Source: Anaerolineae bacterium
GTDB lineage: Bacteria > Chloroflexota > Anaerolineae > S140-20
Assembly: GCA_027021705.1 (NCBI GenBank)
Contig: JALUTT010000067.1
Location: 1-45,134 of the forward strand
DNA length: 45,134 nt
Direction of reading: 5' to 3'
Under the pieces are notes generated by a model. It was not told the DNA's origin, made no database searches, and saw only the letters and a program-made list of their open reading frames with translations. Made by a program: the position numbers and the translations under genes. Positions 5,497-35,235 of this stretch are shown here, one piece after another (the first letter of the stretch is position 1; each line of letters starts with the position of its first letter).

Positions 5497-5551
5497 TCGC
5501 AATCTGCAATTTGCCATCTGCAATCCGCGACCTCGCAATCGGTAATCTGCG
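5497..5551. repeat. Degenerate heptamer array (GCAATCT-like)
   Basis: gcaatct gcaattt gccatct gcaatcc gcgacct cgcaatc ggtaatct gc, intergenic. Confidence 0.7.
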
Positions 5552-5562
5552 TTCCACACTCC

Positions 5563-6291
5563 TCATCGGAACAGGTCCAGCCCTTCCGGTGGCAGGAGAA
5601 AGGATTCCTCTTCCTGCTCTAGAGGGAGATGCCATGGCTTCTCGGGTAGGAAGGTCAGGAGGGCAAGCAGGAAGAGGAACAGGTAGAAGCCCAGCACCAA
5701 TCCCAGGACGACCGGACCGGAGAGGGGTCCTGCGGCAGCCCGGGCCACCACTTCCTGTCGCTGGTGGGTTGGGAAGGGGTGGAGGATCAATTTGGCTCCC
5801 CAGGCTGCGCCCAGGATGAGGAAGAGAAAGCTGTAGTTGCGGCGCAGACGGTTGCCGATGCCTTCCCACAGGGTCAGGTAGAAGTGGGGAATCTGGATTT
5901 CGAGGGCCATGTGGTGACGCCAGCCGGGCTGATAAGGGGCGGTCCCGTTCCCTATGGAGGGGGTTCCCAGGTGCTTCTCCAAGATGCGGACCCACCGCTG
6001 CCAGATCTCCCAGTAGCGGAAGCGGCGTCCCTCGATGATGAGGAAGGTGAAGACGAGAAAGGCGGTCAGGGGCAGGATAATCGGTGAGCTGGTGTGATGA
6101 CCGAAGGCAGCTGCCAACCCGATCCCCGTCGTTCCCACGGCCCAGTTGGTGGTGGTGTCCAGCCGCTTGCGCCAGATCTGGGCTCGAAAGAGGGTGGCCC
6201 GGTAGAAGTGCTCGATGACGAAAAGCTCGTTGCCGGAGAACAGCGTGGTGGGCTGGGGGCGTTCCTCGGTCCGACCATCGCCAAGGCGCAT
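5563..6291 (-). CDS. DUF2270-family integral membrane protein (paralog 2)
   Basis: HFYR...WRKRLDTTTNWAV, IEGRRFRY and RLRRNY motifs. ATG at 6291 overlaps the upstream TGA. Confidence 0.85.
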   Translation of the reverse strand: MRLGDGRTEERPQPTTLFSGNELFVIEHFYRATLFRAQIWRKRLDTTTNWAVGTTGIGLAAAFGHHTSSPIILPLTAFLVFTFLIIEGRRFRYWEIWQRWVRILEKHLGTPSIGNGTAPYQPGWRHHMALEIQIPHFYLTLWEGIGNRLRRNYSFLFLILGAAWGAKLILHPFPTHQRQEVVARAAAGPLSGPVVLGLVLGFYLFLFLLALLTFLPEKPWHLPLEQEEESFLLPPEGLDLFR

Positions 6292-8515: not shown

Positions 8516-9214
8516 GTGGAAGTCGTTCTCGAAGGACTGCAGCAGGCGTTCTGGCTGATCTTGCGGCGGGACCCGGCGGTCGTCGAGATCACCCTACGCA
8601 CGCTCCAGGTCTCCGGGACGGCGACGCTGATCAGCCTGTTGCTGGGGGTGCCGCTGGGCACGGCGTTGGCCCTGGGGCGCTTTCCCGGTCGCCGCCTGGT
8701 GGTCAGCCTGGTCAACACAGGGATGGGGCTGCCGCCGGTGGTGGTGGGGCTCTTCGTGGCCCTGATGCTATGGCGCAGCGGCCCTCTGGGGAGGCTGGGC
8801 CTGATCTACACCCCGCTGGCGATGGTGATCGCCCAGGCGGTGATCGCCGCGCCCATCGTGGCCGGGGTCAGCCTGGCCGCCATCCAGCAACTGGACCCCC
8901 GCCTGCACTTGCAGCTTCTGGGGCTGGGGGCCTCGCGGGGGCAGTTGGTGCTCGTCCTCTGGTGGGAGGCCCGTCGGTCGCTGATGGCCGCAGCGATGGC
9001 CGGCTTCGGTGGGGCCATCTCCGAAGTCGGCGCTTCGATGATGGTCGGCGGCAACATCGTCGGCCAGACGCGGGTGCTGACGACGGCGACGGTGCTGGAG
9101 ACGAGCAAGGGGAACTTCGACCTGGCGATGGCCCTCGGCCTGATCCTCCTGCTCCTGGCCTACTTGGTCACGCTGGCGATGACCTGGCTCCAGCAGAGCG
9201 GGAGGACGGGATGA
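8516..9214 (+). CDS. tupB: Tungstate ABC transporter permease
   Basis: MGLPPVVVGL and ISEVGASMMVGGNI...TRVLTT motifs. Confidence 0.92.
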   Translation: MEVVLEGLQQAFWLILRRDPAVVEITLRTLQVSGTATLISLLLGVPLGTALALGRFPGRRLVVSLVNTGMGLPPVVVGLFVALMLWRSGPLGRLGLIYTPLAMVIAQAVIAAPIVAGVSLAAIQQLDPRLHLQLLGLGASRGQLVLVLWWEARRSLMAAAMAGFGGAISEVGASMMVGGNIVGQTRVLTTATVLETSKGNFDLAMALGLILLLLAYLVTLAMTWLQQSGRTG

Positions 9215-10332
9215 GCAAGCCGGTCCTCTCCCTGCGCGATGTGCGGGTGGAGTACGGCGGGCGGTCGGTGCTGGAGGTCCCGGCCTTGGATGTGTGCTCT
9301 GGAGAGGTGCTGGCCGTCATCGGTCCCAACGGGGCGGGCAAGAGCACGTTGCTCCAGGTGATGGCGGGCCTGCGCTCCCCCGGCGCGGGGGTGCTGCGCT
9401 TCCGGGGCCAGACCGTCCGGCCCGGCGACCTAGGCTATCGCCGGCGCATCGCCCTGGTGCTCCAGGACCCGATGCTGCTGGATGCCTCGGTGCTGACCAA
9501 CGTGACGTTGGGGCTGCGCTTCCGACGCTGGCCGAGGCGGAAGGCGGTCGGGCGAGCTATGGGCTGGTTGGAGCGGCTGGGGGTGGCTCACCTGGCCCAC
9601 CGGTCGGCCCGCACCCTCTCCGGCGGCGAGGCCCAGCGGGTCAGCCTGGCCCGGGCGCTGGTGCTGGAGCCGGAGCTGCTCCTACTGGACGAACCCTTCA
9701 GCGCCCTGGATGCGCCCACCCGAGTGGCTCTCCTAGACGATCTGCAGGGCCTGCTGCGGGAGACCCGGACGACGACGGTCTTCGTCACCCACGATCAGGA
9801 CGAGGCATTGCGGCTGGGGGATCGGATCGCAGTGCTCTTGGGAGGACGGCTGCGGCAGTTGGATGTGCCGGAGCGGGTCTTCGCGGCGCCGGCCGACGCC
9901 GAGGTGGCGGCCTTCGTGGGGATGGAGACGATCCTGACGGGCCGGGTCGTCGCCGTGGAGAACGGGATGGCGCTGGTGCAGGTGGGCTCGCAGCGGGTGG
10001 AGGTGCCGGTCACGGCGGGGATGCGGCCGGCAGGACCTGAGCCGGTCCCACCCTTGCAGGAGGGAAGCGAGGTGCTGCTGGGCATCCGTCCCGAGGATGT
10101 GACGCTGGCACCGGGGGAGACGCCCTTGTTGCCCAGCAGTGCCCGCAACCGCTTCCGGGGGCGGGTCACGCGGGTCGTGCCCCAAGGTCGCCTCTACCAC
10201 GTGACGGTGGCCTGCGGCTTCCCCTTGGTCGCCGTCGTCACCCCCCGTTCGGTGCGGGAGCTGGCGCTGAGGGAGGGGCGGGAGGTGGTCGTCGCCTTCA
10301 AGGCCACCGCCGTGCACGTCATCCGCCGCTGA
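9211..10332 (+). CDS. tupC: Tungstate ABC transporter ATP-binding protein with C-terminal TOBE domains
   Basis: GPNGAGKS, LSGGE, LLLDEP, SSARN..G TOBE motif. ATG at 9211 overlaps the tupB stop (ATGA). Confidence 0.88.
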   Translation: MSKPVLSLRDVRVEYGGRSVLEVPALDVCSGEVLAVIGPNGAGKSTLLQVMAGLRSPGAGVLRFRGQTVRPGDLGYRRRIALVLQDPMLLDASVLTNVTLGLRFRRWPRRKAVGRAMGWLERLGVAHLAHRSARTLSGGEAQRVSLARALVLEPELLLLDEPFSALDAPTRVALLDDLQGLLRETRTTTVFVTHDQDEALRLGDRIAVLLGGRLRQLDVPERVFAAPADAEVAAFVGMETILTGRVVAVENGMALVQVGSQRVEVPVTAGMRPAGPEPVPPLQEGSEVLLGIRPEDVTLAPGETPLLPSSARNRFRGRVTRVVPQGRLYHVTVACGFPLVAVVTPRSVRELALREGREVVVAFKATAVHVIRR

Positions 10333-10411: not shown

Positions 10412-11011
10412 GTGCCGGAGATCGCAGAGATCCAGGAGCGTGTAAGCGATTTGGAGGCGGTGCTCGCCCGGTTTATCGTGCGCACCGAGCAGATTCTGGA
10501 GCGGATGGAGATTGAGGCCAAGCGGGATCGGCGAGAGTGGAACAAACGGTGGGGCGAGTTGGCCAATCGGTTGGGGACGGTCGTCGAGGACATCGTGGCT
10601 CCCAACATCCCTCGGATCGCTCAAGACTACTTTGGCCTCCTGGAGATCGAGGACTTTATGGTCCGCCGCAAGGTCCGGCATAAGCGGGATCGAGCCCGGC
10701 GACGGGAGTTCGACGTGATCGCCGTGGGGGAAGACTGGGTGATCATCAACGAGACGAAGGCGACGCCGAGGATCGAGTACATCCACGACTTCGTCAAAGC
10801 GCTGGAGGAGATCGAGGATTACTTGCCGGAGTACCGGGGGAAGCGGATCATCCCGATCTTCGCGTCCCTGTATATGGGCGAGGATGTGGTGAACTACCTG
10901 ACCCGGCACCGGATCTACGCGATGGCGATGGGCGATGAGACGATGGACCTGCTTAACTTCGCGGCCTTGGGCGATGAGGGGGTCCGGCGGCCTCGGACCT
11001 CGCCAGAGTGA
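10412..11011 (+). CDS. Coiled-coil plus PD-(D/E)XK nuclease-fold protein (DUF3782-like)
   Basis: GGAGGT SD and GTG at 10412; WGELANRLGTVVEDIVAP, EFDVIA...INETK (D...ExK). Confidence 0.65.
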   Translation: MPEIAEIQERVSDLEAVLARFIVRTEQILERMEIEAKRDRREWNKRWGELANRLGTVVEDIVAPNIPRIAQDYFGLLEIEDFMVRRKVRHKRDRARRREFDVIAVGEDWVIINETKATPRIEYIHDFVKALEEIEDYLPEYRGKRIIPIFASLYMGEDVVNYLTRHRIYAMAMGDETMDLLNFAALGDEGVRRPRTSPE

Positions 11012-11087
11012 GACAGAGGAGGACCGGTGAGAGAGGGGCACGCGGCCTTTGTGGCCCGGCTGAAGGCTCGCGGAGGGTGAGTTGGCG

Positions 11088-11315
11088 ATGTTTGACGAAG
11101 TGGGCAAGGGGCTGATCCTGATGGGGGTGATCCTGGTCCTGCTGGGCGGCCTTCTCTGGCTGGCCGGCAGGGTGCCTTTTCTCGGACGGCTCCCCGGCGA
11201 CATCCACATCCAGCGGGACGGCTTCTCCTGTTTCTTCCCGCTGGCGACCTCCCTCCTGCTCAGCCTTCTGTTGACCCTCTTGCTCAACCTGCTCCTGCTG
11301 TTGGGGCGGAAGTAG
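11088..11315 (+). CDS. DUF2905 family small membrane protein
   Basis: LGRLPGDI...FFPLATSLLLS motif; immediately upstream of queA. Confidence 0.85.
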   Translation: MFDEVGKGLILMGVILVLLGGLLWLAGRVPFLGRLPGDIHIQRDGFSCFFPLATSLLLSLLLTLLLNLLLLLGRK

Positions 11316-11316
11316 A

Positions 11317-12393
11317 ATGCGAACGGACGAGTTTGACTACCACCTCCCGCCGGAGTTGATCGCCCAGAAGCCGGTGGAGCCCCGAGACGCCTCCCGCCTG
11401 ATGGTCCTCAACCGGGCCGATGGCTCCATCACCCATCGCATCTTCCGCGAGATCGGGGCCTACCTCCGGCCCGGCGACCTGCTGGTGTTGAACGAGAGCC
11501 GGGTGATCCCGGCCCGCCTCTTCGCCCGCAAGGTGCCCACCGGCGGACGGGTGGAGATGCTGTTGCTGAACCCGGAGGGGGAGGACGGGCGGTGGCGGGT
11601 TCTGGTCAAGGGGCGGCGGGTTCGGCCGGGGACGCGGTTGGCCCTCACCGCCGGCCCGGAACCGGAGAGCCCGACCATTGATGTGGAAGCGACCGTCGTC
11701 GCCGAGGGGGAGCGGGGGGAGCGGGTCGTCGTCTTCAGCCGGCCTGTGGAGACCTTCTTGGAGCAGGTCGGCGTCATCCCGCTGCCGCCCTACATCCACG
11801 AGCCGCTGGCCGACCCGGAGCGCTACCAGACCGTCTACGCCCGGCGACCGGGATCGGTGGCGGCACCCACCGCCGGCCTCCATTTCACACCTGAGCTGCT
11901 CTTGTCCTTGCGGGAACAGGGGGTTCAGTTCGCCTACGTGACGTTGCACATCGGTCTGGATACCTTCCGCCCGGTGAGCACCGAGCGGGTGGAGAACCAC
12001 AAGATGCACAGCGAGTGGTGTCGGTTGAGCCCGGAGACCGCGTCGCTGATCAACCGGGCGAAGCTGGAGGGGCGGCGGGTGGTTGCCGTGGGGACGACGG
12101 CGGTGCGGGTGCTGGAGACGGCAGCTCAGCGGGCGCTGGCTCAGTGCGGGGGTGAGGCGTGTGCCTGGCAGGCGGTGGTCGCCTTCGAGGGGGCGACCGA
12201 CCTCTTCATCACGCCGGGGTATCGTTTCCGGGCGGTGGACGCCCTCATCACCAACTTCCACCTGCCCCGTTCAACGCTGCTGATGCTGGTGGCCGCTTTT
12301 GCCGGGCTGGACCTGATCCGCCGGGCCTACGCGGAGGCAATCGCCCGCCGTTATCGTTTCTACAGTTTTGGGGATGCGATGCTCATCTTGTAG
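11317..12393 (+). CDS. queA: S-adenosylmethionine:tRNA ribosyltransferase-isomerase
   Basis: FDYHLPPELIAQ, PLPPYI, YQTVYA, AAPTAGLHFT, TNFHLPRSTL and YSFGDAM motifs. Confidence 0.97.
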   Translation: MRTDEFDYHLPPELIAQKPVEPRDASRLMVLNRADGSITHRIFREIGAYLRPGDLLVLNESRVIPARLFARKVPTGGRVEMLLLNPEGEDGRWRVLVKGRRVRPGTRLALTAGPEPESPTIDVEATVVAEGERGERVVVFSRPVETFLEQVGVIPLPPYIHEPLADPERYQTVYARRPGSVAAPTAGLHFTPELLLSLREQGVQFAYVTLHIGLDTFRPVSTERVENHKMHSEWCRLSPETASLINRAKLEGRRVVAVGTTAVRVLETAAQRALAQCGGEACAWQAVVAFEGATDLFITPGYRFRAVDALITNFHLPRSTLLMLVAAFAGLDLIRRAYAEAIARRYRFYSFGDAMLIL

Positions 12394-12421
12394 AGATGCA
12401 CAATCCACGTAGAGTCTGGCG

Positions 12422-12883
12422 TTATTGGGGGAAGTCGGTGTGTTCTCCTACCCAATGGGCCCAGGTTACCCCTAGCTGGTGGGCGCGGGCTATCAGGCGG
12501 CGATCAGTGCTCCAGAATTCGACGCTCAAACGCTCAGCCAGAGCCAAGTAGAAGGCATCGTAGGCTCGCTTCTGCCTTAGACGGCCAGCCCAGATCAGCG
12601 CGCTTTGGGCCAGCGTGGTATCTGGGATAAACGTTATAGGCAATTGGAGCATGCGGTTCAGGGCTCGTTCAGCCTCTGCTGGCGTTAGGATGCGTTCCCA
12701 AATAGCTCGACGCAAGCCTGAGGTAACTTCTGCTACCCAAAGGTGGGGCGCACACAGGGGCCTTTGTTCTTCTATCCATTGACGCCATAAGGAGTGGACG
12801 GCATCTTGATAGGGATGGGGGAAGACGGTGACTAGGAAAAGACCGGCGTCAATGACCACCGAGTAGCTCTTCGAAGATCTCAT
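12422..12883 (-). CDS. vapC: PIN-domain VapC toxin (start may be GTG at 12859)
   Basis: VVIDA, AEV, AYDAFYLALAE and FWSTD acidic PIN motif; overlaps the upstream antitoxin. Confidence 0.85.
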   Translation of the reverse strand: MRSSKSYSVVIDAGLFLVTVFPHPYQDAVHSLWRQWIEEQRPLCAPHLWVAEVTSGLRRAIWERILTPAEAERALNRMLQLPITFIPDTTLAQSALIWAGRLRQKRAYDAFYLALAERLSVEFWSTDRRLIARAHQLGVTWAHWVGEHTDFPQ

Positions 12884-20757: not shown

Positions 20758-21588
20758 CTAGATGCGTGCGGCCTTGAAGGTCTCCACCTGCTGGCGGATG
20801 GCGACCTCGGTGGGGAGCCGCTCGATGCTGGACGCGCCGAAGAAGCCGACGACCCCTTCAGTGTGATCGTAGATGTACTGGGCATCTTCCGGCATAGCGA
20901 TGGGGCCGCCGTGGCAGAGCACGAGGATGTCGGGGTTGACCGCTTTGGCGGCATCGTGCATCGCCTGCACCCGCTTGGCCGCTTCCTCCAGCGTCAAGGC
21001 CGTCTTGGCTCCGATGGCTCCCTTGGTCGTCAGTCCCATGTGGGGGACCAGGACATCGGCGCCGGCCTCGGCCATCTTGACGGCCTGCTCCTCGTCGAAG
21101 ACGTAGGGGCAGGTGAGCATATCCATCTCGTGGGCCAGGCGGATCATCTCCACTTCCAGGTCGTAGCCCATCCCGGTCTCTTCCAGGTTCTGGCGGAAGA
21201 CGCCGTCAATGAGGCCGACGGTGGGGAAGTTCTGTACACCGGTGAAGCCCATCTCCTTCAGTTGCTTGAGGAAGACGGGCATCAGCCGGAAGGGATCGGT
21301 GCCACAGACACCGGCCAGGACGGGGGTGTCCTGGACGACGGGGAGCACCTCGGCGGCCATCTCGACGACGATAGCGTTGGCGTCTCCGTAGGGCAACAGG
21401 CCGGCCAGGGAACCCCGCCCCGCCATACGGTAGCGCCCGGAGTTGTAGATGATGATGAGATCGGCGCCTCCACGTTCAGCGAACTTGGCGGAGATGCCGG
21501 TGCCAGCACCGCAGCCGATGATGGGTTTGCCCTCGGCCACCGTCTTGCGTAGACGGGCCAGCGCTTCCTCGCGGGTGATGAAAGCCAT
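20758..21588 (-). CDS. TIM-barrel signal transduction / PEP-hydrolase-like family protein
   Basis: [47 protein letters not shown] and GASSIERLP motifs. Confidence 0.9.
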
Positions 21589-21634
21589 TGTGTGCCTCCT
21601 CTCTCGGACACAAGGGCCTCGGTCATCCTCAGAT

Positions 21635-22846
21635 TCAGGCCGAGCCCAGGAACTCCAGCAGCTTGTTGGCCACGGCTTCGGCGAATTCGGGATCGTTGAT
21701 GTTGTGGTCCAGTTCGTAAACCGGGATGTCGGAACGCAGGTTGGCTTTCAAGGCGTCACGGAAGGCCCGGTCCGCCTCCGGATCCCAGAAGGGCTCCCCT
21801 TCGCTGTCGAGCATGGAGACGCCCCGCATGGGTATGAAGACGGCGACCGGGCCCGTTGCCTGGTTCAGCTTCTCGGCGAAGATCTCGCCCATCCGTCGGT
21901 TCTCTTCGACGTTGGTGCGCAGCAGCGTGACGTTAGGGTTCCATTCGTAGAGGTTGCGGTCCTGATACCGCTCGGGCACCGTGGCGCGGGCCCAGAAGTT
22001 GGCCATATCAATGCAGCCGGGAACGACGACCTGGGGAGTGCCGGTCTTGGCAGCCGCCTCCAGGCGGGTGGGACCGGCGCTGAGAACACCCCCGCAGACC
22101 TCGTCGGCCCACTCGGTGGTGGTGATGTCCAGGACGCCGGCGATGTAGCCATCCTCAATGAGGCTTTCCATCGTGCGCCCCCCGGTGCCAGTAGCGTGGA
22201 AGACGAGGACTTCGTAGCCGTGGGCCTCCATGATCTCCCTCGCCTTGTTGACGCAGGGGGTCGTGTTGCCGAACATCGTTGCGGCGATGAGGGGTTTCTC
22301 CTCGGCCGGCGGCGGTTCCGTCTCCACCATCCCGCAAATGGCCCCGGCGGCGTTGGCGTAGATCTGGCGGCTGATCCGGTTAAAGCCGGCCACGTCCACC
22401 ACCGAGGGCATCATCGTGATGTCTCGGGTCCCGACGTAGGCGCTGACATCGCCGGCCGCCACCGTGGAGACCATCAGCTTGGGGACGCCGACGGGCAGGG
22501 TGCGCATCGCCGCCGTCGCCACGGCGGTGCCGCCGCTGCCGCCCATGCTCATAATGCCATCGAAGCGCCCTTCATCGTACAAGCGCCGCACGACGGCAGC
22601 GGCCCCGGCGCTCATCACTCGCATCGCCTCGCCCCGGTCCTCTTTTTCCTGGAGGGCTTCAATGCTGCTCCCTCCGGCCTGGGCGACCTCTTCGCGGCTT
22701 ACGTCGGCTTCAAAAGCCGGTTCACCGATTACGCTGGTGTCAATGACCAGCGCCCGGTGGCCCTGGGCTTCGATCAGTTCCTTGACGAAGCGGAACTCTT
22801 CCCCTTTGGTGTCCAGTGTGCCCAGCAGGGCGATGGTCTTGGACAT
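21635..22846 (-). CDS. Tm-1-like ATP-binding domain protein (UPF0261)
   Basis: [33 protein letters not shown] and HNINDPEFA motifs. Confidence 0.9.
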
Positions 22847-22922
22847 CGCAATCCCTCCCCCGCTCCCGGCACGCGGGTGCCGGAATCACCGATCAGGTGG
22901 AACGGACCATCAACTCCAGGGT

Positions 22923-23036
22923 GGAGGCAAAAGGTGAGGGCGGTCCGCCGGCTCAGCCATCCCCCTGTCGGAGGGGATGGGCTGGATTGGGTGTCTTTTG
23001 TTTCCTCCTCCCGCTCGACGACCCCGGCGGACCGCC
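22923..23036. other. Intergenic region with several overlapping inverted repeats (possible attenuator or terminator)
   Basis: ccatcccc/ggggatgg hairpin; ggcggtccgccgg/ccggcggaccgcc; ggaggcaaaag/cttttgtttcc. Confidence 0.4.
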
Positions 23037-23109
23037 TCCTCCCGTCCTGAGCCGTTTCAGCCATCCCGTCGCGCCCACCTGGCCCTGGCCTGACCGCCTC
23101 TATCTCTGC

Positions 23110-23472
23110 TTAGGCCCTTCCCTGGATCATGAGGCTCAGCCACACACCGTAGGCCACCGCCACAATGCCCAGCAGCGTCAGGACCAGGTTGACCCGGCGC
23201 TCGGCGGTGGGGCTCAGCCCCAGGTCGAGGAGGACCGACCGTACCCCCAGCCCGGCGTGGAGGGTGACGGTGAGCAGGAAGAGCACCTCCAGCACAAAGA
23301 CCAGTGGGTTGGAAAGGTAGGTGACCACATCCTGGTAGGTGCGCAATCCCCCTTCGACGATGAAGTGGTTGGCCACGATGTGGAGGGCCAGGAGCAGGAC
23401 GAGGAGTAGCCCTGAAAGGGCCTGGAGCAGCCAGAGCCACCCTCCTCGGGTTCCCTGTTGACCGCGTTCCAT
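23110..23472 (-). CDS. Complex II-type hydrophobic membrane anchor (SdhD-like)
   Basis: WLLQALSG...LH...LHAGLGVRSVLLD; 3 TM helices; AGGAGG SD. Confidence 0.88.
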   Translation of the reverse strand: MERGQQGTRGGWLWLLQALSGLLLVLLLALHIVANHFIVEGGLRTYQDVVTYLSNPLVFVLEVLFLLTVTLHAGLGVRSVLLDLGLSPTAERRVNLVLTLLGIVAVAYGVWLSLMIQGRA

Positions 23473-23523
23473 CGGAACTTTCCCTCCTGTCAGACCGATC
23501 TCAGACGCTGAACTCCCCGAGAT

Positions 23524-23594
23524 CCTCCCGCAGGGTCCTCGGCAGCCTTCGATAAGCCATTGCTGTTGTCAGGCACCGCGCGATCTGCGGGAGG
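23524..23594. repeat. CCTCCCGCAG...CTGCGGGAGG hairpin element (REP/MITE-like)
   Basis: Perfect 10-bp terminal IR; interior similar to the copy at 35126-35217. Confidence 0.75.
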
Positions 23595-23604
23595 GCAACA
23601 ACGG

Positions 23605-24015
23605 TCAGGTAGCTGGGCTGCTGAACACCTTCCAAGCGCTAAGGAGCAACAGCACTGCACCGATGGCCATCAGGACCCAGAAGAGGGTCTTGTGGCGCTC
23701 CACACCCAGTCCCATCCCTACCAAAGCCACGCGGATGCCGTTGAGGCCGTGGAAGAGGAGGCCGAAGAAGAGCACCACGTCCAGGAAGAGGAAAGCAGGG
23801 CTCTTCGCCAGAGCGATGAAATCGTTCCAACGGCTCTCCCCCTGGGCCAGCAGGCTGAGCACCAGCAGGTGGATGACCAGGTAGAGGACGAGGCCTAGGC
23901 CGGTGAGCCGGTTGAGGGCGAAGGCCCAGGCCCCCAGTCGGCGGCCCCGTACATCGAGCCAGCTCCAGGCACCCTTTCGACGGATCAGGCCGTAGGTTTG
24001 GCGCTCTTGGACCAT
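23605..24015 (-). CDS. Complex II-type cytochrome b subunit (SdhC-like)
   Basis: NRLTG...IHL...FHGLNGIR; 3 TM helices. Confidence 0.88.
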   Translation of the reverse strand: MVQERQTYGLIRRKGAWSWLDVRGRRLGAWAFALNRLTGLGLVLYLVIHLLVLSLLAQGESRWNDFIALAKSPAFLFLDVVLFFGLLFHGLNGIRVALVGMGLGVERHKTLFWVLMAIGAVLLLLSAWKVFSSPAT

Positions 24016-24028
24016 CCGGGTTCCCCTC

Positions 24029-24748
24029 CTACCTTTTGCCGAAAAGCTGACCGATCTTGCGACGGGTCAGTTCCCGCCGTAGGGCCATGATCGCCCCTGC
24101 CGGGTCCACGTTGGAGGGACAGACCTCGCTGCATTCAAAGGCGGCGTGACAGCGCCAGCAGCCGTGTTCGTGGTCCACCCATGCCAGGACCGTAGCGGGA
24201 TCCCGTCCGCGGGGCTCCTCCACCATCCGCCAGGCGGCGGCCAGGGCAGCCGGTCCCAGGTAAAGGGGGTCACTGCCCGCCACCGGACAGGCGGAGAGGC
24301 AGAGGCCACATTCAATGCAGTTCTCCAGCCGCATATGGTGTTCAACCCCCTCGGGGACCTGGGAGTCGGGCAGGAATTCGCTCTCCCGGATCATAGGCAT
24401 CCCGGCCGGCTGGTAGCGGGCGTAGAAGTCGCCCATATCCACCACCAGGTCGGTGATGAGGGGGGCGTTGTCCAGGGGCTCCACGATCACCTCAGACGTG
24501 CTCAACTCTAGGACGTTGGTCACACAGGCCAGGACTTCCCGGCCGTTGACCTTCATCCCGCAAGTGCCACAGGAAGCGTGGAAACAGGAGTGGCGGAAGG
24601 CCAAGGTCCCATCCTGTTCCTGCCGGATCTGCTCTAGAGCACGAAGAACGGTGGTCCGAGGATCCACCCGGACGGTGTAGGTCTGGTAGGAGGGGCGCTC
24701 TCCCTGTTTGTAGCGAAAGACCTTGAACTGCACGGTTTGTTCGGCCAT
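24029..24748 (-). CDS. Complex II-type iron-sulfur subunit (SdhB/FrdB-like)
   Basis: SCFHASCGTC...LAC (2Fe-2S), CIECGLCLSACP and CHAAFECSEVCP; DLVVD motif. Confidence 0.92.
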   Translation of the reverse strand: MAEQTVQFKVFRYKQGERPSYQTYTVRVDPRTTVLRALEQIRQEQDGTLAFRHSCFHASCGTCGMKVNGREVLACVTNVLELSTSEVIVEPLDNAPLITDLVVDMGDFYARYQPAGMPMIRESEFLPDSQVPEGVEHHMRLENCIECGLCLSACPVAGSDPLYLGPAALAAAWRMVEEPRGRDPATVLAWVDHEHGCWRCHAAFECSEVCPSNVDPAGAIMALRRELTRRKIGQLFGKR

Positions 24749-24763
24749 CGCGTTCCTCGAAGG

Positions 24764-25933
24764 TCAGTCGGGTTGGACGTAGTAGGCGGTGTGGGGCAGG
24801 AGGACGACCTCGCGGGTGCGGCAAGGGGCGTCCACGCCCAGCTTCTGACAGACCACGTTGGCCGTTGTCTCGGCCATCCCTCGGGCTGTCGTAGCCTTGC
24901 CGCCGGTGATGGTGACGAACCCTTCCACGCCTTCGTCGGCGTGGTCAAAACACTTGAAGGTGCGGCTCAATTCGCGCCCGGTGGTGGCCCCCCGCTCGCC
25001 GACCAGGGGGCGGGCCGCCGACCAGGCGGCCCGGAAGGGCGCCTGCTTGACCATCGGGACCATCTCGGCCCCTTTCTCGTACATCAACTGAACGTGGTCC
25101 TCAGGCACTGGTAGATTGTCGGGGTCCTCCACCACCCAGGAGCTGGTGCCCACGACGGAGAGCCCCCGCTGAGGGACGATGATGTCCCCGTCGCCGGAGC
25201 GGTGGAGCCGGTTGATCACCATATTGCACAACCGTCCTCGAAGGGCCAGCAGGACGCCCGGAGAGGGCTGGATGGGGACGTGGACGCCAGCCATCGCGGC
25301 CACCTTCTCCGACCAGGGGCCGGCGGCATTGACGACGATGTCGGCGCCGATCTCGTACTCCTTCTCGGTCCGGTGATCGCGCACTCGGACTCCGGTCACG
25401 GTGTTCCCCTGCTTCAAAATCGCTACCACCTCCGTAAAGGGCTTGACGACTGCGCCGTTGTGTTTGGCGGTGGCCAGGAAGCGGAGGGGGATGCGCATAG
25501 CGTCCATCGTGCCGTCGGGGACCTGGACGGCCAGCTTCAGGTCGGGGCTCAGGTTGGGTTCCAGACGGAGGGCTTCTTCGCGCGTTAGCTCGCGGGTGGG
25601 GATGCCACACTGGGCGCATCCCTCCAGGAAGAGGTCTCGGTAGGCGACATCCTCTTCGGTGATGGCGACGAAGAGGCCGTCATTCAGTTCGAGGGACTCT
25701 GGCGCGATACGCCGCAGGATCATGTTCTCTTCGATGCATTCCCGGGCCGACTCCTGGTCTTTTACAGCGTAGCGGGCTCCGCTGTGGAGCAGGCCGTGGT
25801 GACGTCCGGTCGTTCCCGAGGTCACCTCCCCGCGCTCGACCAGCGTGACCTGGAGCCCCCGCAACGCCAGATCGTGGGCCAAGGCGGCTCCGGTTGCGCC
25901 TCCACCGATGATCAAGACGTGGAATGTTGCCAT
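24764..25933 (-). CDS. glpA: FAD-dependent glycerol-3-phosphate dehydrogenase, GlpA-type, lacking the C-terminal BFD-like Fe-S domain
   Basis: GGGATG, TTGRHHGLLHSGARYAVKDQESARECIEEN and ITGGKATT closely follow GlpA motifs; about 389 aa; directly downstream of glpK. Confidence 0.88.
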   Translation of the reverse strand: MATFHVLIIGGGATGAALAHDLALRGLQVTLVERGEVTSGTTGRHHGLLHSGARYAVKDQESARECIEENMILRRIAPESLELNDGLFVAITEEDVAYRDLFLEGCAQCGIPTRELTREEALRLEPNLSPDLKLAVQVPDGTMDAMRIPLRFLATAKHNGAVVKPFTEVVAILKQGNTVTGVRVRDHRTEKEYEIGADIVVNAAGPWSEKVAAMAGVHVPIQPSPGVLLALRGRLCNMVINRLHRSGDGDIIVPQRGLSVVGTSSWVVEDPDNLPVPEDHVQLMYEKGAEMVPMVKQAPFRAAWSAARPLVGERGATTGRELSRTFKCFDHADEGVEGFVTITGGKATTARGMAETTANVVCQKLGVDAPCRTREVVLLPHTAYYVQPD

Positions 25934-26134
25934 CGTGCCCTCTGGTGCTGTCTGTCTGGTGCCCGGCTGCTCCAAGGGCGCTCATGGACCGGGCACCCCC
26001 ACGGGGGTACGGGCGGGCTGGACACCCGCCCGCACCCTGCGGCGGACTTGGTGCGCCATACAGCGCTGGGAGGGAAGGGATGTGGGGTCGCTTTCCCAGA
26101 CGGTGGTCGCACCAATGTCTCCTTCGAGAGGGGA

Positions 26135-27646
26135 TTACTCGACCCAGTTGAAGGTCCGTTCGACGGCCTTGAGCCAGCCCTTGTAGAGCTGCTCGCGGGT
26201 TGCCTCGTCCATCTTGGGCTCCCAGGTCTTGTCCACCTGCCAGTTGGCCCGCAGGTCCTCCAGGTTGTCCCAGAAGCCCACGGCGAGGCCGGCGGCGTAG
26301 GCGGCACCCAGCGAGGTGGTCTCGGCGACCTTGGGCCGGACGACGGGCACACCCAGGATGTCGGCCTGGAACTGCATGAGCAGCTCGTTGTAGACCATGC
26401 CGCCGTCCACCTTGAGGGCCTTCAACTCCACGCCGGAGTCCTTCTTCATCGCATCCAGCACCTCGCGGGTCTGGTAAGCGGTGGCCTCCAGAGCGGCGCG
26501 GGCGATGTGGCCCCGGTTGATGTAGCGGGTCAGGCCGACGATGACGCCTCGGGCGTCAGAGCGCCAGTAGGGGGCGAAGAGGCCGGAGAAGGCGGGGACG
26601 AAGTAGATGCCGCCGTTGTCCTCCACCGTCTTGGCCAGGTCTTCAACCTCAGCCGACTTGCTAATGAGGCCCAGGTTATCCCGCAGCCACTGGACCAGGG
26701 CACCGGTGATGGCGATGGAGCCCTCCAGGGCGTAGACGGCCGGCTCGTCGCCGATCTTGTAGGCCAGCGTGGTCAGCAGGCCGCTCTTGGAGGGCACGGG
26801 CGTGGTGCCGGTGTTCAGGAGCATGAAGCAGCCGGTGCCGTAGGTGTTCTTGGCCTCACCCACGCTGTAGCAGGTCTGGCCCACCAGCGCTGCCTGCTGA
26901 TCGCCCAGGTCGCCGCAGACGGGGATGGCGTCGCCGAAGGGGCCGTCCTTGGGGGTCGTGCCCCAGACGTTGGGGTCGCTGGAGGGGACGATGCGGGGGA
27001 GCATCTGGCGCGGGATGCCCAGGATTCCCAGGATCTCGTCGTCCCAGTCCAGGGTCTCCAGGTTCATCAGCATAGTGCGGCTGGCGTTGGAGACGTCGGT
27101 GACGTGGGCGCCGCCGTCGGGACCGCCGGTCAGCCACCAGATCTCCCAGGTGTCAATGTTGCCGAAGATGGCGTCGCCGCGCTCGGCGGCCTCGCGGACC
27201 CCTTCCACGTTATCCAGGATCCACTTGATCTTGGGGCCGGAGAAGTAGGTGGCCAACGGAAGGCCGACCTTAGGGCGGAAACGATCCTGCCCGCCGTCCA
27301 TCGCCAGCTCGTCGCAGATCTCCTTGGTGCGGGTGTCCTGCCAGACGATGGCGTTGTAGTAGGGCTTGCCCGTCTTGCGGTCCCAGACGATGGTGGTCTC
27401 CCGCTGGTTGGTGACGCCGACGGCGGCGATGTCGCCGGGTTCGGCGCCGGCCTTGGCCACGGCCTCTTTCACCACCTCCTGGGTTCGCTCCCAGATCTCC
27501 ATCGGGTCGTGCTCGACCCAGCCCGGCTTGGGGTAGATCTGCTCGTGCTCCTTCTGGGCGATGCTGATGACCTCGCCGCTGCGGTTGAAGATCATGCACC
27601 GGGTGCTGGTCGTGCCCTGATCTACTGCTGCTGCATACTTGGCCAT
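26135..27646 (-). CDS. glpK: Glycerol kinase
   Basis: [36 protein letters not shown] and [11 protein letters not shown] motifs. Confidence 0.97.
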
Positions 27647-27756
27647 GGAACTCACTCCTTTCTAGGAACTCCTAAGGTAGGTTCAATGGATCCGACGCGC
27701 GATCTCTCCCACGCCCCGGGCGGGAGATGCGGTTGCCCAGATGCCAGGCTGGTGGT

Positions 27757-28392
27757 CTATTGGGGTTGGGAGATGACGTCGAGCAACGCCTTGAGGATCA
27801 GGTAGGAGGAGGTCGCTCCAGGGTCTTGGTGGCCGATACTTCGTTCACCCAGGTAGCTGGCCCGCCCCTTCTTGGCCAGCATTGGGATGGTGTCCTTCAT
27901 CCCTTGTTCCGCCGCGTCCACTGCCCGACGCAGGGCTTCGATGGTATCGGCTCCCTCACCGATGGCCTGTTTGAAAGCTTCCGTGGCCGGAGTCAGGGCG
28001 TCTACCATCGTCTTATCTCCTAGTTGGGCTCTCCCCCGCTGCACCACGCCATCTACGGCGGCCTGGAGGAGGGCGGCCAGGTCCTCGTCCGTGAGCTCGT
28101 ACTTGCCATCCACCGCCATGCCAGCCCGCATAAAGAGGGTGCCGTAGAGGGGACCACCGGCGCCTCCCACGCTGGAGATGAGGGCCATCCCCGTCGTCTT
28201 CAGGATGCTGCCGATGTCCTTGTCCTCGACACCGGGCAATTGGCTCATCACTTTTTTGAACCCACGGTCCATGTTGATGCCGTGGTCCGCGTCGCCGATG
28301 GCGGCATCCAATTGGGTCAGGTAGTCCTTGTTTTCTTCCAGCACCTGGGCAACTGTTTTCAACCAGGCGACGATCTGATCTCTGGTGACCAT
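27757..28392 (-). CDS. dhaL: Dihydroxyacetone kinase ADP-binding subunit L
   Basis: LDAAIGDADHG, GDKTMVD and GRASYLGERSIGHQDPGA motifs. Alternative start GTG at 28401. Confidence 0.95.
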   Translation of the reverse strand: MVTRDQIVAWLKTVAQVLEENKDYLTQLDAAIGDADHGINMDRGFKKVMSQLPGVEDKDIGSILKTTGMALISSVGGAGGPLYGTLFMRAGMAVDGKYELTDEDLAALLQAAVDGVVQRGRAQLGDKTMVDALTPATEAFKQAIGEGADTIEALRRAVDAAEQGMKDTIPMLAKKGRASYLGERSIGHQDPGATSSYLILKALLDVISQPQ

Positions 28393-28560
28393 CTCAGACA
28401 CGATCCTCCTTTGCAACACCGTGGTCTAGGGGCATGCCCGGAAGGCCAGGGGGGGCTCCCACACCGCTGGTGGGGCCGGGAGTGGGAGCCCTCACCCGCC
28501 GCCGGGAGTCAAGACCTTTAGAAGGCGGAGAGGGGGGTGTTGCGTTGCCTGCGCGCCTTC

Positions 28561-29634
<1,074 letters not shown>

Positions 29635-29683
29635 AACACTTCTCCTTCACCTGTGGTCTGACCCTCGCAGGAATCGGTGGGAT

Positions 29684-29711
29684 GTAGGGGCGAGCATAGG
29701 CTCACCCCTAC
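29684..29711. repeat. GTAG-type REP-like palindrome
   Basis: GTAGGGGCGAGC-atag-GCTCACCCCTAC between glpF and dhaK. Confidence 0.6.
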
Positions 29712-29754
29712 TCTCCTCCCTTGCGGAAATCGTCAACGTAGGACCTCTGAGGGC

Positions 29755-30549
29755 CTATCCCTTGCTGGCCAAGCCCGGGGTGACGAACCAGTCGTAGGTG
29801 AGGACGCCCAAGATACCGCCGATGATGGGGGCGATGACCGGCGCGACCAGCCAGTAGAGGCCATCAAAGAGGCCCGTGGTGCCCACCAGGGTCCCGAAGA
29901 TGCGCGGACCCAGGTCGCGGGCGGGGTTAATGGCATAGCCACTGGGGCCGCCCAGGGTGAGGCCGATGGCCAGAACGACGAAGCCGACCATGAGGGGACC
30001 CAGGTTGGCACCGACGCCCAGGTTCTTGGTGTCGAAGACGGCCAGGACACCCCACAGCAGCACGGCGGTGCCGAAGATCTCTGCGATGACGGCGACGGGG
30101 AGGGAATAGCTGCCGGTGGATGCCGCTCCGGCGCCGCCCCAGAAGGCCTGACCGAAGACGGAGCCGGGGCCGGTGCACCAGACGTTGGGCATGCCCGCGG
30201 CCTTCAGGCCGTCCATGTAGACCAGGTAGACACCCAAGGCTCCCAGGAAAGCGCCGATGAACTGGGCGATGATGTAGGGAACGACCTTGCCCCACGGGAA
30301 GTCGCCGCGCACAGCCAAAGCGATGCTCACGGCGGGGTTAATGTGAGCGCCGGAGACCCCGCCGACGATGTAGACGGCGAAGACAACGGCGAAACCCCAT
30401 CCAAAGGCGATGGTGTTCCAGTTGTAGGCCGGAGCCGCCAGGCGGGGAGCCAGCCCGACGTTGGCGACGACGCCGTCACCGAGCAGGATCAGGATGAAGG
30501 TCCCGAAGACCTCCGCGATGAACTCGTGCCGCAGGGTTTTGTCTTGCAT
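29755..30549 (-). CDS. glpF: MIP family aquaglyceroporin (glycerol uptake facilitator)
   Basis: SGAHINPAV and GYAINPARDLGPR (NPARD = aquaglyceroporin signature). Confidence 0.92.
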   Translation of the reverse strand: MQDKTLRHEFIAEVFGTFILILLGDGVVANVGLAPRLAAPAYNWNTIAFGWGFAVVFAVYIVGGVSGAHINPAVSIALAVRGDFPWGKVVPYIIAQFIGAFLGALGVYLVYMDGLKAAGMPNVWCTGPGSVFGQAFWGGAGAASTGSYSLPVAVIAEIFGTAVLLWGVLAVFDTKNLGVGANLGPLMVGFVVLAIGLTLGGPSGYAINPARDLGPRIFGTLVGTTGLFDGLYWLVAPVIAPIIGGILGVLTYDWFVTPGLASKG

Positions 30550-30710
30550 AGTTCCTCTCCTTACTTGCGTGATGTGGCGGGTCGCTAGAGATGAGGGAAG
30601 CGTTGGGTGAGGAAGAAAAGCATTTGACGATGGTTGGCTGTGGACAACACCTCCTTTCTAGCGCTCTTTGCTGGCTTGGGGAAACGGGATTACAGGTGGT
30701 TGTGCGTCTC

Positions 30711-31487
30711 CTACAGGTGGGAGGGGGAGGCGATCATCTGCTGGTTAATCATGCCGGCCAGATAGCCTGCTCCTACGCCGTTGTCTATGTTCACCACAGC
30801 GACCCCCAAGGCGCAGCTGTTAAGCATTGCCAGGAGAGCAGCCACACCTCCAAAGCTGGCTCCGTAACCGACGCTGGTCGGTACGGCGATGACGGGGACG
30901 CCGACCAACCCACCCACCACGCTGGCCAGCGCTCCTTCCATACCGGCGACGACGACAACAACTCGGGCTCGCATCAGGGCCTCGCTGCGGTCCAACAACC
31001 GATGCAGTCCGGCGACGCCAACATCGTAGAGCCGTTCGACCTGGTTGCCCATCACCTCGGCCGTGATGGCCGCCTCTTCAGCGACGGGGATGTCAGAAGT
31101 GCCACCGGTGACTACCAGGACACCCGGTTGCTTGGGTCTGTCGGGTTCCCGGTCCACCACGATGAGGCGAGAGAGAGGGTGGTAAATGGCGTTTTCGACG
31201 ACGGTGTGGAGGGCTTCATAGACCTCTGGGCTGGCTCGGGTGACCAGGATGGGGCTATGTCGTTCTACCATCCGTTGCACGATTTGGATCACCTGCTCTG
31301 GGGTCTTCCACTGGGCCATCACGATCTCTGGGAAGCCCTGTCGCAGGGTCCGATGGTGGTCCAAGTGGGCAAAGCCCAGATCTTCGTAGGGCAGGTGCTT
31401 CAGCGTTTCCAGGGCCTCTTCGACGGAGGTGGTGCCGTCGCGCACCCTTTCCAGCAGGGCGGTCAGGCTGTGGAGTAGCTGAGACAT
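30711..31487 (-). CDS. larB: Nickel-pincer cofactor biosynthesis protein LarB (AIR carboxylase-like)
   Basis: [44 protein letters not shown] and NSC...VNIDNG motifs. Confidence 0.92.
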
Positions 31488-31689
31488 AGACCCTCGCGAT
31501 CTAGCATGCTCCCTCAACCTTGGTGATCCTGGATGCGGCGGTAACAGGGTAGGACGATCTCAAGGGCATCGTTGGATGGCCGGGAGGGTCAGGAGTTCGG
31601 TGCTCGGTAGGGGATTCCAGATCGGAACACGGGACGCCCCGATCCACACTCGGTTGGCCGTCGCAAGCGAGGAATAGTACTACACTACT

Positions 31690-34491: not shown

Positions 34492-34613
34492 GTATCTATT
34501 CAGCCTACCCTCCCGCAGGTCACCGGTCGAGGGCGCTTTCAGCCCCGATGGGCTATTGGAAGCGCGGTTTCGCGTCGGAAACGTGCCTAACCTGCGGGAG
34601 GGTGAACAGTTAC
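34492..34613. repeat. 122-bp element copy A (MITE/REPIN-like), inverted relative to copy B
   Basis: 116/122 identical to the reverse complement of 35275-35396; internal IR ccctcccgcaggt/acctgcgggaggg; termini gtatctattcag...tgaacagttac. Confidence 0.9.
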
Positions 34614-35125: not shown

Positions 35126-35217
35126 CCTCCCGCAGGTCCTCCCCACGGCCTGAAGCGCCTCGTAGGCGGCTTCCGATGAGCTGCCGCTGTTGCCAACATC
35201 GTGTGACCTGCGGGAGG
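35126..35217. repeat. CCTCCCGCAGGT...ACCTGCGGGAGG hairpin element
   Basis: Same terminal IR as copies A and B; interior similar to 23524-23594. Confidence 0.8.
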
Positions 35218-35235
35218 GTGCAGCCGTCAGAACCC

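Follow-up and report, generated by a model that had tools for sequence, protein, structure and literature searches.

A glycerol operon in an Anaerolineae bacterium (assembly GCA_027021705.1, contig JALUTT010000067.1) poses the question of how electrons from glycerol 3-phosphate (G3P) reach the respiratory chain when glpA, the gene for the catalytic subunit of a flavin adenine dinucleotide (FAD)-dependent G3P dehydrogenase, is followed not by glpB and glpC, but by three genes resembling sdhB, sdhC and sdhD of succinate dehydrogenase (complex II). The whole stretch of DNA analysed, 45,134 nucleotides (nt) in length, is referred to here as the window, and all operon coordinates are on its minus strand. 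The genes in question, the last four of the operon, encode a short GlpA of 389 amino acids (aa) (24764..25933), an SdhB-like iron-sulfur subunit of 239 aa (24029..24748), an SdhC-like membrane anchor of the cytochrome b type of 136 aa (23605..24015) and an SdhD-like membrane anchor of 120 aa (23110..23472). Sequence comparison and structural modelling together indicate that they probably encode one membrane-bound G3P:quinone (probably menaquinone) oxidoreductase.

A sequence-only reading of the same DNA had proposed such an enzyme, pointing to the gene order and its gaps of 15 and 13 nt, to GlpA motifs in a protein of about 389 aa that lacks the Cys-rich C-terminal domain, to the absence of sdhA, glpB and glpC from the window, to three Fe-S cluster motifs in the SdhB-like protein and two membrane histidines in each anchor, and to a repeat insertion as the main source of the wider sdhC-sdhD gap. 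It had also named places where the idea might fail, among them an orphan sdhA elsewhere in the genome, an arrangement that is not conserved and a GlpA that has no interface with SdhB, and had suggested looking for a distinct SdhB clade. The observations were recovered and none of these three failures was encountered, so that the placing of GlpA on an SdhB/C/D electron wire is upheld by synteny, clade, ligands, modelled interface and the lack of an orphan sdhA. The accompanying claim that the design is undescribed did not survive, as the type has already been named for the archaeon Thermofilum pendens (PMC11962113).

Gene order and conservation among relatives

The order glpF-dhaK-dhaL-glpK-glpA-sdhB-sdhC-sdhD-like is shared with many related loci. 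In the window 15 nt separate glpA from sdhB, 13 nt separate sdhB from sdhC and 132 nt lie between sdhC and sdhD. The open reading frame of glpA extends over 24764-25975 from a TTG codon, and the start is likely to be the ATG at 25933, which lies upstream of the dinucleotide-binding motif and yields the 389-aa protein. Between this ATG and glpK (25934-26134) there are about 200 nt of non-coding DNA, more than in any other gap of the operon; in relatives the two genes are about 10 to 150 nt apart.

When the 389-aa GlpA was used to scan one genome per species, 524 relatives were obtained, and the locus counts given below refer to the best 80 of these (63-88% identity), with groups taken from record titles and neighbouring genes found by tblastn with the window proteins. 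The Chloroflexota among them are Anaerolineae, Ardenticatenaceae, Promineifilaceae, Limnocylindrales and 'Chloroflexia', the Actinomycetota are Solirubrobacterales and one isolate, Cellulomonas sp. SG140, and there are in addition one Binatia bin and one Planctomycetaceae bin. An SdhB-like gene lies directly 3' of glpA in 76 of the 80 loci, and in the remaining four the contig stops no more than 43 nt from glpA, which means that the linkage holds in 76 out of 76 testable loci across several phyla. Both SdhC and SdhD follow in 56 of the 76 and a single anchor in seven, in five of which the contig ends within 720 nt; two loci are too short to judge and in 11 no anchor was detected.

A second sample consisted of 401 genomes spread evenly over the phylum to which the window belongs, from which the 28 best SdhB matches were taken. 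Of the top 20, 18 have a short glpA as their neighbour, one is cut off by the end of its contig and L114 stands alone, and all of the next eight adjoin sdhA. A GlpA-linked SdhB was found in 17 of the 400 other genomes of the phylum, plus one probable case, and the arrangement is not rare in the phylum.

The flavoprotein and its substrate

The translation of glpA contains the motifs HGLLHSGARYAV and ITGGK, and the best family is GlpA itself: the protein matches the equivalog model TIGR03377 with 464 bits against a cut-off of 552.8, covering profile positions 1-378 of 530. Positions 379-530 are unmatched, indicating that the C-terminal part of GlpA is missing, and since positions 1-378 are matched from end to end the score below cut-off fits the absence of those 150 or so positions. 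Pfam recognised only FAD domains of the DAO type (DAO, 171 bits), plus a weak match to FAD_binding_2 (41 bits). Family scans found no Fer2_BFD, the mark of the canonical Cys-rich C-terminal iron-sulfur domain, and the Pfam scan found no DAO_C, the mark of the aerobic GlpD. This tail-less protein is well conserved, with a mean column identity of 77% in an alignment of 76 rows (A1).

The genes upstream form a setting of glycerol uptake and phosphorylation. The same-strand cluster is headed by a glpF-like glycerol facilitator (29755..30549; Pfam MIP, 152.5 bits), followed by dhaK, the Dak1 subunit of dihydroxyacetone kinase (28561..29634; Pfam Dak1, 444 bits), dhaL, the Dak2 subunit (27757..28419; Pfam Dak2, 199.5 bits), and the glycerol kinase gene glpK (26135..27655; TIGR01311, 757 bits against a cut-off of 590). 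In the relatives glpK is directly upstream of glpA in 58 of the 80 loci and elsewhere in the locus in two, five cannot be tested, and in 15 it was not found despite at least 1500 nt of upstream DNA.

It has to be asked at this point whether a real four-subunit complex might act on a substrate other than G3P, such as another 2-hydroxy acid or an amine. The substrates of DAO-fold enzymes are diverse, the score of GlpA falls under the equivalog cut-off and the 15 loci without an upstream glpK would be in keeping with a different substrate. The shortfall in score is, however, accounted for by the missing C-terminal positions, the next best families, GlpD and GlpO, score far lower, and the glpF-dhaKL-glpK operon of the window together with the adjacency of glpK in most relatives speaks for G3P, making another substrate unlikely.

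The putative SdhB-like partner and the membrane anchors

The SdhB-like protein is recognised by TIGR00384 (203.5 bits, cut-off 88) and contains Fer2_3 and Fer4_8 domains; it also matches the TfrB model NF004898 with 134.7 bits. The SdhC-like anchor matches TIGR02970 (54.3 bits, cut-off 52.3) and Pfam Sdh_cyt, and the SdhD-like anchor matches Pfam Sdh_cyt (48.9 bits, cut-off 25.8). No SdhA flavoprotein (Succ_DH_flav_C), that is, no catalytic subunit of complex II, is found in the window, and the family searches found neither glpB nor glpC there.

The genome assembly (183 contigs, 94.9% complete) has a single match to the SdhA C-terminal domain Succ_DH_flav_C, on contig C55, and this SdhA lies within a complete sdhABCD operon of its own (L010, 5895-9208). 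Only two SdhB proteins score above cut-off in the genome, that of the C55 operon and that of the window, and no sdhA was left over that might partner the window genes. No GlpB (TIGR03378) exceeded its cut-off anywhere in the genome, the best match reaching 22 bits, and no GlpC (TIGR03379) exceeded the cut-off of 279.9, the best match (164.5 bits) being on another contig. Five other carriers of the GlpA-linked SdhB were checked. Four of them have a single SdhA, which adjoins an SdhB of its own, and apart from it a GlpA-linked SdhB; one of these four records (G002) bears the title of a whole chromosome. In the fifth (G001), which may be an incomplete genome, no SdhA was found and the GlpA-linked SdhB is the only one that was found. 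Succ_DH_flav_C also gave weaker matches of 49 bits in G003 and 22 bits in G004. In G002 the match to the canonical SdhB that adjoins SdhA (L094, 1486-2164, on G002:C1) is split into two parts lying in different frames, and the break near 2025-2039 could be a frameshift or a sequencing error.

Two trees place the GlpA-linked SdhB proteins apart from those that serve SdhA. The first was built with FastTree from 216 rows, comprising 76 GlpA-linked and five SdhA-linked proteins and 135 library representatives of unknown context (15 of 150 such representatives having been dropped for length). All 76 GlpA-linked proteins fall in one group of 121 rows with a local support of 99, and the SdhA-linked rows lie outside it; the 45 library representatives inside this group come without genomic context. 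The second was built with IQ-TREE under LG+C20 from 49 rows of known context (36 GlpA-linked, 12 SdhA-linked and L114), and in it a single branch with 100/100 support parts the SdhA-linked rows from all others, which bears out the expectation of a distinct clade.

The cofactor ligands are intact as far as they can be read from conservation. Eleven cysteines of the SdhB-like protein (C55, C60, C63, C75, C144, C147, C150, C154, C200, C206 and C210) are invariant in 76 out of 76 rows, and we take them to be the complex II pattern for a [2Fe-2S], a [4Fe-4S] and a [3Fe-4S] cluster, the assignment following that of E. coli SdhB. In the SdhC-like anchor H49 and H89 are invariant (62/62 rows), and in the SdhD-like anchor H31, H36, H72 and D83 are invariant (53/53 rows). 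This is the set of histidines that a two-haem anchor needs, and the anchors probably hold two haems b. In all 63 anchor-bearing loci the first Cys of the third SdhB motif is followed by a His, presumably the equivalent of the quinone-site residue His207 in SdhB of E. coli. This His is not universal outside the GlpA-linked clade, because one canonical SdhB (L091) has Arg at this position.

The predicted GlpA-SdhB complex

A complex-modelling job was run for GlpA and the SdhB-like protein with two alignments of 76 rows and three controls. The ipSAE values for the pair were 0.90, 0.92 and 0.92, and the best of the three controls gave 0.00; the model runs agreed in at least 75% of contacts and the partner pLDDT was at least 82. 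For comparison, 116 of 157 solved complexes attain this mark, as do two of 215 mismatched pairs, a benchmark that applies only roughly here because the alignments were our own. The Protein Data Bank (PDB) contains no GlpA-type chain with an SdhB-like partner, and the modelled pose was therefore not copied from a like complex.

In the model the [2Fe-2S] cysteine loop of SdhB (residues 52-60, 62 and 75-76) faces GlpA residues 35-44, 228-238, 254-258 and 301-304, and the nearly invariant C-terminal tail of GlpA (380-386) is in contact with SdhB 108-113. Ten SdhB positions separate the GlpA-linked from the SdhA-linked proteins, and six of these (G16, H53, S59, R140, E142 and E146) are in the modelled interface, which takes up 56 of the 239 residues; Fisher's test gives p = 0.012 for this association, a value that is overstated because the rows of the alignment are related. 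The prediction of an interface with clean controls supports the binding of GlpA to SdhB.

Proposed mechanism

On the reading adopted here, glycerol would enter through GlpF and be phosphorylated by GlpK to G3P, which the short GlpA would oxidise to dihydroxyacetone phosphate (DHAP) on its FAD. GlpA would be seated on an SdhB paralogue dedicated to it, at the N-terminal [2Fe-2S] domain, and the cluster of this domain would replace the lost C-terminal domain of GlpA. Electrons would then pass from the [2Fe-2S] to the [4Fe-4S] and on to the [3Fe-4S] cluster, and from there to a quinone site at the junction of SdhB, SdhC and SdhD, with the two anchors probably carrying two haems b. From the data set out above we infer that the four proteins assemble into one complex (as the model of GlpA with SdhB predicts), what its substrate and its quinone are, how many haems it holds and in which direction the reaction runs; menaquinone is a guess made from the phylum.

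A number of observations weigh against this reading and are collected here. The complex score is the model's own confidence, and the weak FAD_binding_2 match of GlpA means that some carry-over from solved SdhA-SdhB complexes is possible. Conservation is not enriched at the interface on either side, with 31 of 61 GlpA positions there against 153 of 328 elsewhere (p = 0.58) and 19 of 56 SdhB positions against 44 of 183 (p = 0.17). The SdhD-like protein scores below the NCBIfam cut-off for TIGR02968 (37.2 against 41.8 bits). The genome has a GlpD-type protein with DAO_C on contig C76 that could oxidise G3P alone, and the 15 loci without glpK have been mentioned. One SdhB of the GlpA clade (L114, 3574-4308, on G126:C33) stands without any glpA, sdhA or anchor gene in the roughly 3.5 kb to each side; it falls on the GlpA-linked side of the IQ-TREE tree, which is in keeping with a glpA that was later lost or moved elsewhere. 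A repeat of 72 nt between sdhC and sdhD could affect the expression of sdhD, and among public sequencing runs the eight listed holders of the locus are all DNA contigs with no RNA among them, and so are uninformative on expression.

A different explanation for the same genes would be that the SdhB/C/D-like proteins serve the canonical SdhA as a second set of electron-transfer and anchor subunits, forming a succinate dehydrogenase/fumarate reductase isoenzyme, and that GlpA acts alone or with another partner, its adjacency reflecting co-regulation. It has in its favour that the proteins are matched by Sdh family models, that every named relative among those listed is publicly annotated as a 'succinate dehydrogenase/fumarate reductase iron-sulfur subunit', and that the short GlpA of Sulfolobus acidocaldarius reduces quinone in vitro without a partner (PMC11962113). 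However, the sole SdhA of the genome adjoins B, C and D genes of its own, the carrier G001 has the GlpA-linked SdhB and no SdhA that could be found, glpA is linked to the SdhB-like gene in every testable locus, the SdhB clade is separate with full support, and the residues specific to it cluster on the face predicted to meet GlpA. Such an isoenzyme is considered highly improbable.

Variation at the membrane end

Among the relatives the end of the module that meets the membrane is not always the same, and three forms can be distinguished. Besides the form with SdhC and SdhD found in the window, there are loci in which the SdhB-like protein is fused to a CCG domain. In all 11 of the best 80 loci in which no anchor was detected the gene after glpA encodes a protein of about 520-530 aa, and the two such proteins that were scanned each contain Fer2_3, Fer4_8 and a CCG domain. 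Ten of these loci carry titles of Solirubrobacterales or other Actinomycetota and one is from a Binatia bin; examples, in which SdhC and SdhD genes are absent downstream, are L038 (7186-8763), L039 (7185-8768), L041, L043 and L050 from Actinomycetota and L088 (6969-8738) from Binatia. In all 11 fusion loci Thr replaces the His of the third motif, and an extra Cys gives the pattern CxxCxxCxxxCP. The fusion rows nest among anchor-bearing actinobacterial rows in the IQ-TREE tree, so the fusion looks derived, subject to the position of the root. Next to the GlpA/SdhB-CCG pair of the Binatia locus there come a gene for an electron transfer flavoprotein (ETF) domain (8911-9681) and then one for a membrane protein of 678 aa that contains 4Fe-4S and CCG domains (10691-12727).

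The third form comes from the phylum sample and consists of glpA and an SdhB-like gene only (L108, 3477-4289; L110, 3336-4289). In both of these loci, as in L114, Arg replaces the His of the third motif. The genes that come after the L110 pair encode a protein of 388 aa, which has a dinucleotide-binding motif near its N-terminus, and a putative PlsY-like membrane protein (5503-6177), both named by eye from the sequence. The presence of this PlsY-like gene beside L110 (the L108 locus being similar) would suit an enzyme that runs mainly in reverse, as a quinol:DHAP reductase making G3P for lipid synthesis, a direction that is very hard to credit for the window, where the genes sit in a catabolic context behind those for glycerol uptake and glycerol kinase, and where the G3P/DHAP couple would be more reducing than menaquinone on textbook potentials.

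To return to the G3P:quinone oxidoreductase, a wider and more speculative proposal is that short GlpA and its SdhB make up a bacterial respiratory module of their own, built on an SdhB clade specialised for a DAO-fold flavoprotein, and that the membrane end of this module has been exchanged at least twice, between a di-haem SdhC/SdhD pair, a fused CCG domain with a fourth Cys and an anchor-less form in which the quinone-site His is replaced. The di-haem form would, unlike GlpD, send the electrons of G3P across the membrane, so that the enzyme could couple to the membrane potential. This proposal is a tentative one and is possible rather than probable.

Relation to known systems

Complex II with two small anchors and two haems is known as 'type A' in the usual classification, and the products of the window genes are like it in having a three-cluster SdhB and conserved anchor histidines in two helices each; the genome's own sdhABCD operon has the same subunit layout. 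They differ from it in that the flavoprotein is a DAO-fold GlpA and not SdhA or FrdA, and in that the SdhB belongs to a separate clade. SdhB joined to CCG domains constitutes 'type E' complex II, and the CCG-fused SdhB of 11 of the 80 relatives resembles these TfrB/CCG-joined forms, from which the window differs by its separate SdhC and SdhD anchors and a third motif with three cysteines. With GlpABC of E. coli there is in common a GlpA that follows the equivalog over positions 1-378 and the link to glpK and glpF, but the Cys-rich domain of GlpA is missing here and an SdhB-type protein with haem anchors stands in place of GlpB and GlpC.

The closest system in print is the 'GlpA-SdhBCD' type named for Thermofilum pendens and its relatives (Schmerling et al., bioRxiv 2024; Commun Biol 2025, PMC11962113). 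Fig. 9b of PMC11962113 draws 'GlpA-SdhBCD (T. pendens)', a proposal that the paper bases on phylogeny, gene order and a reconstructed model. The two agree in having a short GlpA followed by SdhB-, SdhC- and SdhD-like genes and in the role proposed by that paper, namely membrane anchoring and the passage of electrons to quinone. The T. pendens system is archaeal, and the locus described here is bacterial (Chloroflexota by its nearest relatives); the likeness is one of gene order and GlpA truncation, the trees being made up of sequences other than those of Thermofilum. On these grounds the locus is a predicted bacterial member of the GlpA-SdhBCD type proposed for archaea, and it is here that the sequence-only reading went too far in taking the design to be new. 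According to PMC11962113, glpA in bacteria is consistently accompanied by glpB and glpC, and the bacterial occurrence therefore exceeds what is in print. In a literature search for which subscription journals were mostly outside the scope, the arrangement was found only in the preprint and paper of Schmerling et al., and a bacterial module with membrane-end variants was not found. What is added to the published type is its bacterial spread, the CCG-fusion variant and the anchor-less variant.

The GlpA-CoxG system of S. acidocaldarius (PMC11962113) is comparable in that a truncated GlpA needs a separate partner for the membrane. There CoxG is a cofactor-free anchor only and GlpA itself reduces quinone, whereas here the proposed partner is a three-cluster iron-sulfur protein with haem anchors.

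The spacer repeat and the surroundings of the operon

The spacer of 132 nt between sdhC and sdhD (23473-23604) contains a dispersed element of 72 nt with inverted-repeat ends (23524..23595). There are three copies of the element in the window, the other two being longer (34508-34602 and 35126-35218), against none expected by chance, and elsewhere in the genome 22 matches of 45 nt or more are spread over 19 other contigs (C12, C63 and C164 among them). In the closest relative (L011) the sdhC-sdhD spacer is only about 12 nt long, which together with the dispersed copies bears out the suggestion that the gap is largely due to the insertion of a repeat. The spacer copy is without some 22 nt that most other copies possess, and several copies have a further 5' flank in common, which in the window covers the stop codon of sdhC. 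A core of 24 nt recurs with a period of 96-124 nt on contigs C68, C29 and C22, which suggests tandem arrays. An Rfam scan of the whole window gave no match at the gathering score, and the spacer repeat is thus not a curated RNA family. The sequence GGAGGG is located 9 nt 5' of the sdhD ATG.

A scan of 22800-31600 for promoters and terminators gave no promoter-like sites and five that resemble terminators; all five are on the plus strand, and chance alone would give 4.3. The immediate downstream neighbours of the operon (20758-22846, minus strand) encode a UPF0261 protein (403 aa) and a phosphoenolpyruvate (PEP)-hydrolase-like protein (276 aa), a gene pair of unknown function. Public DNA runs with at least half of the sampled words of 23110-27655 are X1 (possibly the source), X2 and X3 (both from one other study) and X4 (from a third study), and runs X1-X3 carry the label hydrothermal vent metagenome.

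Implications

If the reading proposed here is correct, complex II would have to be seen not as a fixed enzyme, but as a reusable electron wire that can be mounted with a flavoprotein of a different fold. The three membrane-end variants would then amount to a natural experiment on how quinone site and third cluster change together with the anchor. Many Chloroflexota and Actinomycetota would feed G3P into their quinone pool along a path misread in current annotation, and metagenome reconstructions may be counting a second 'sdhBCD' as capacity for the tricarboxylic acid (TCA) cycle or for fumarate respiration.

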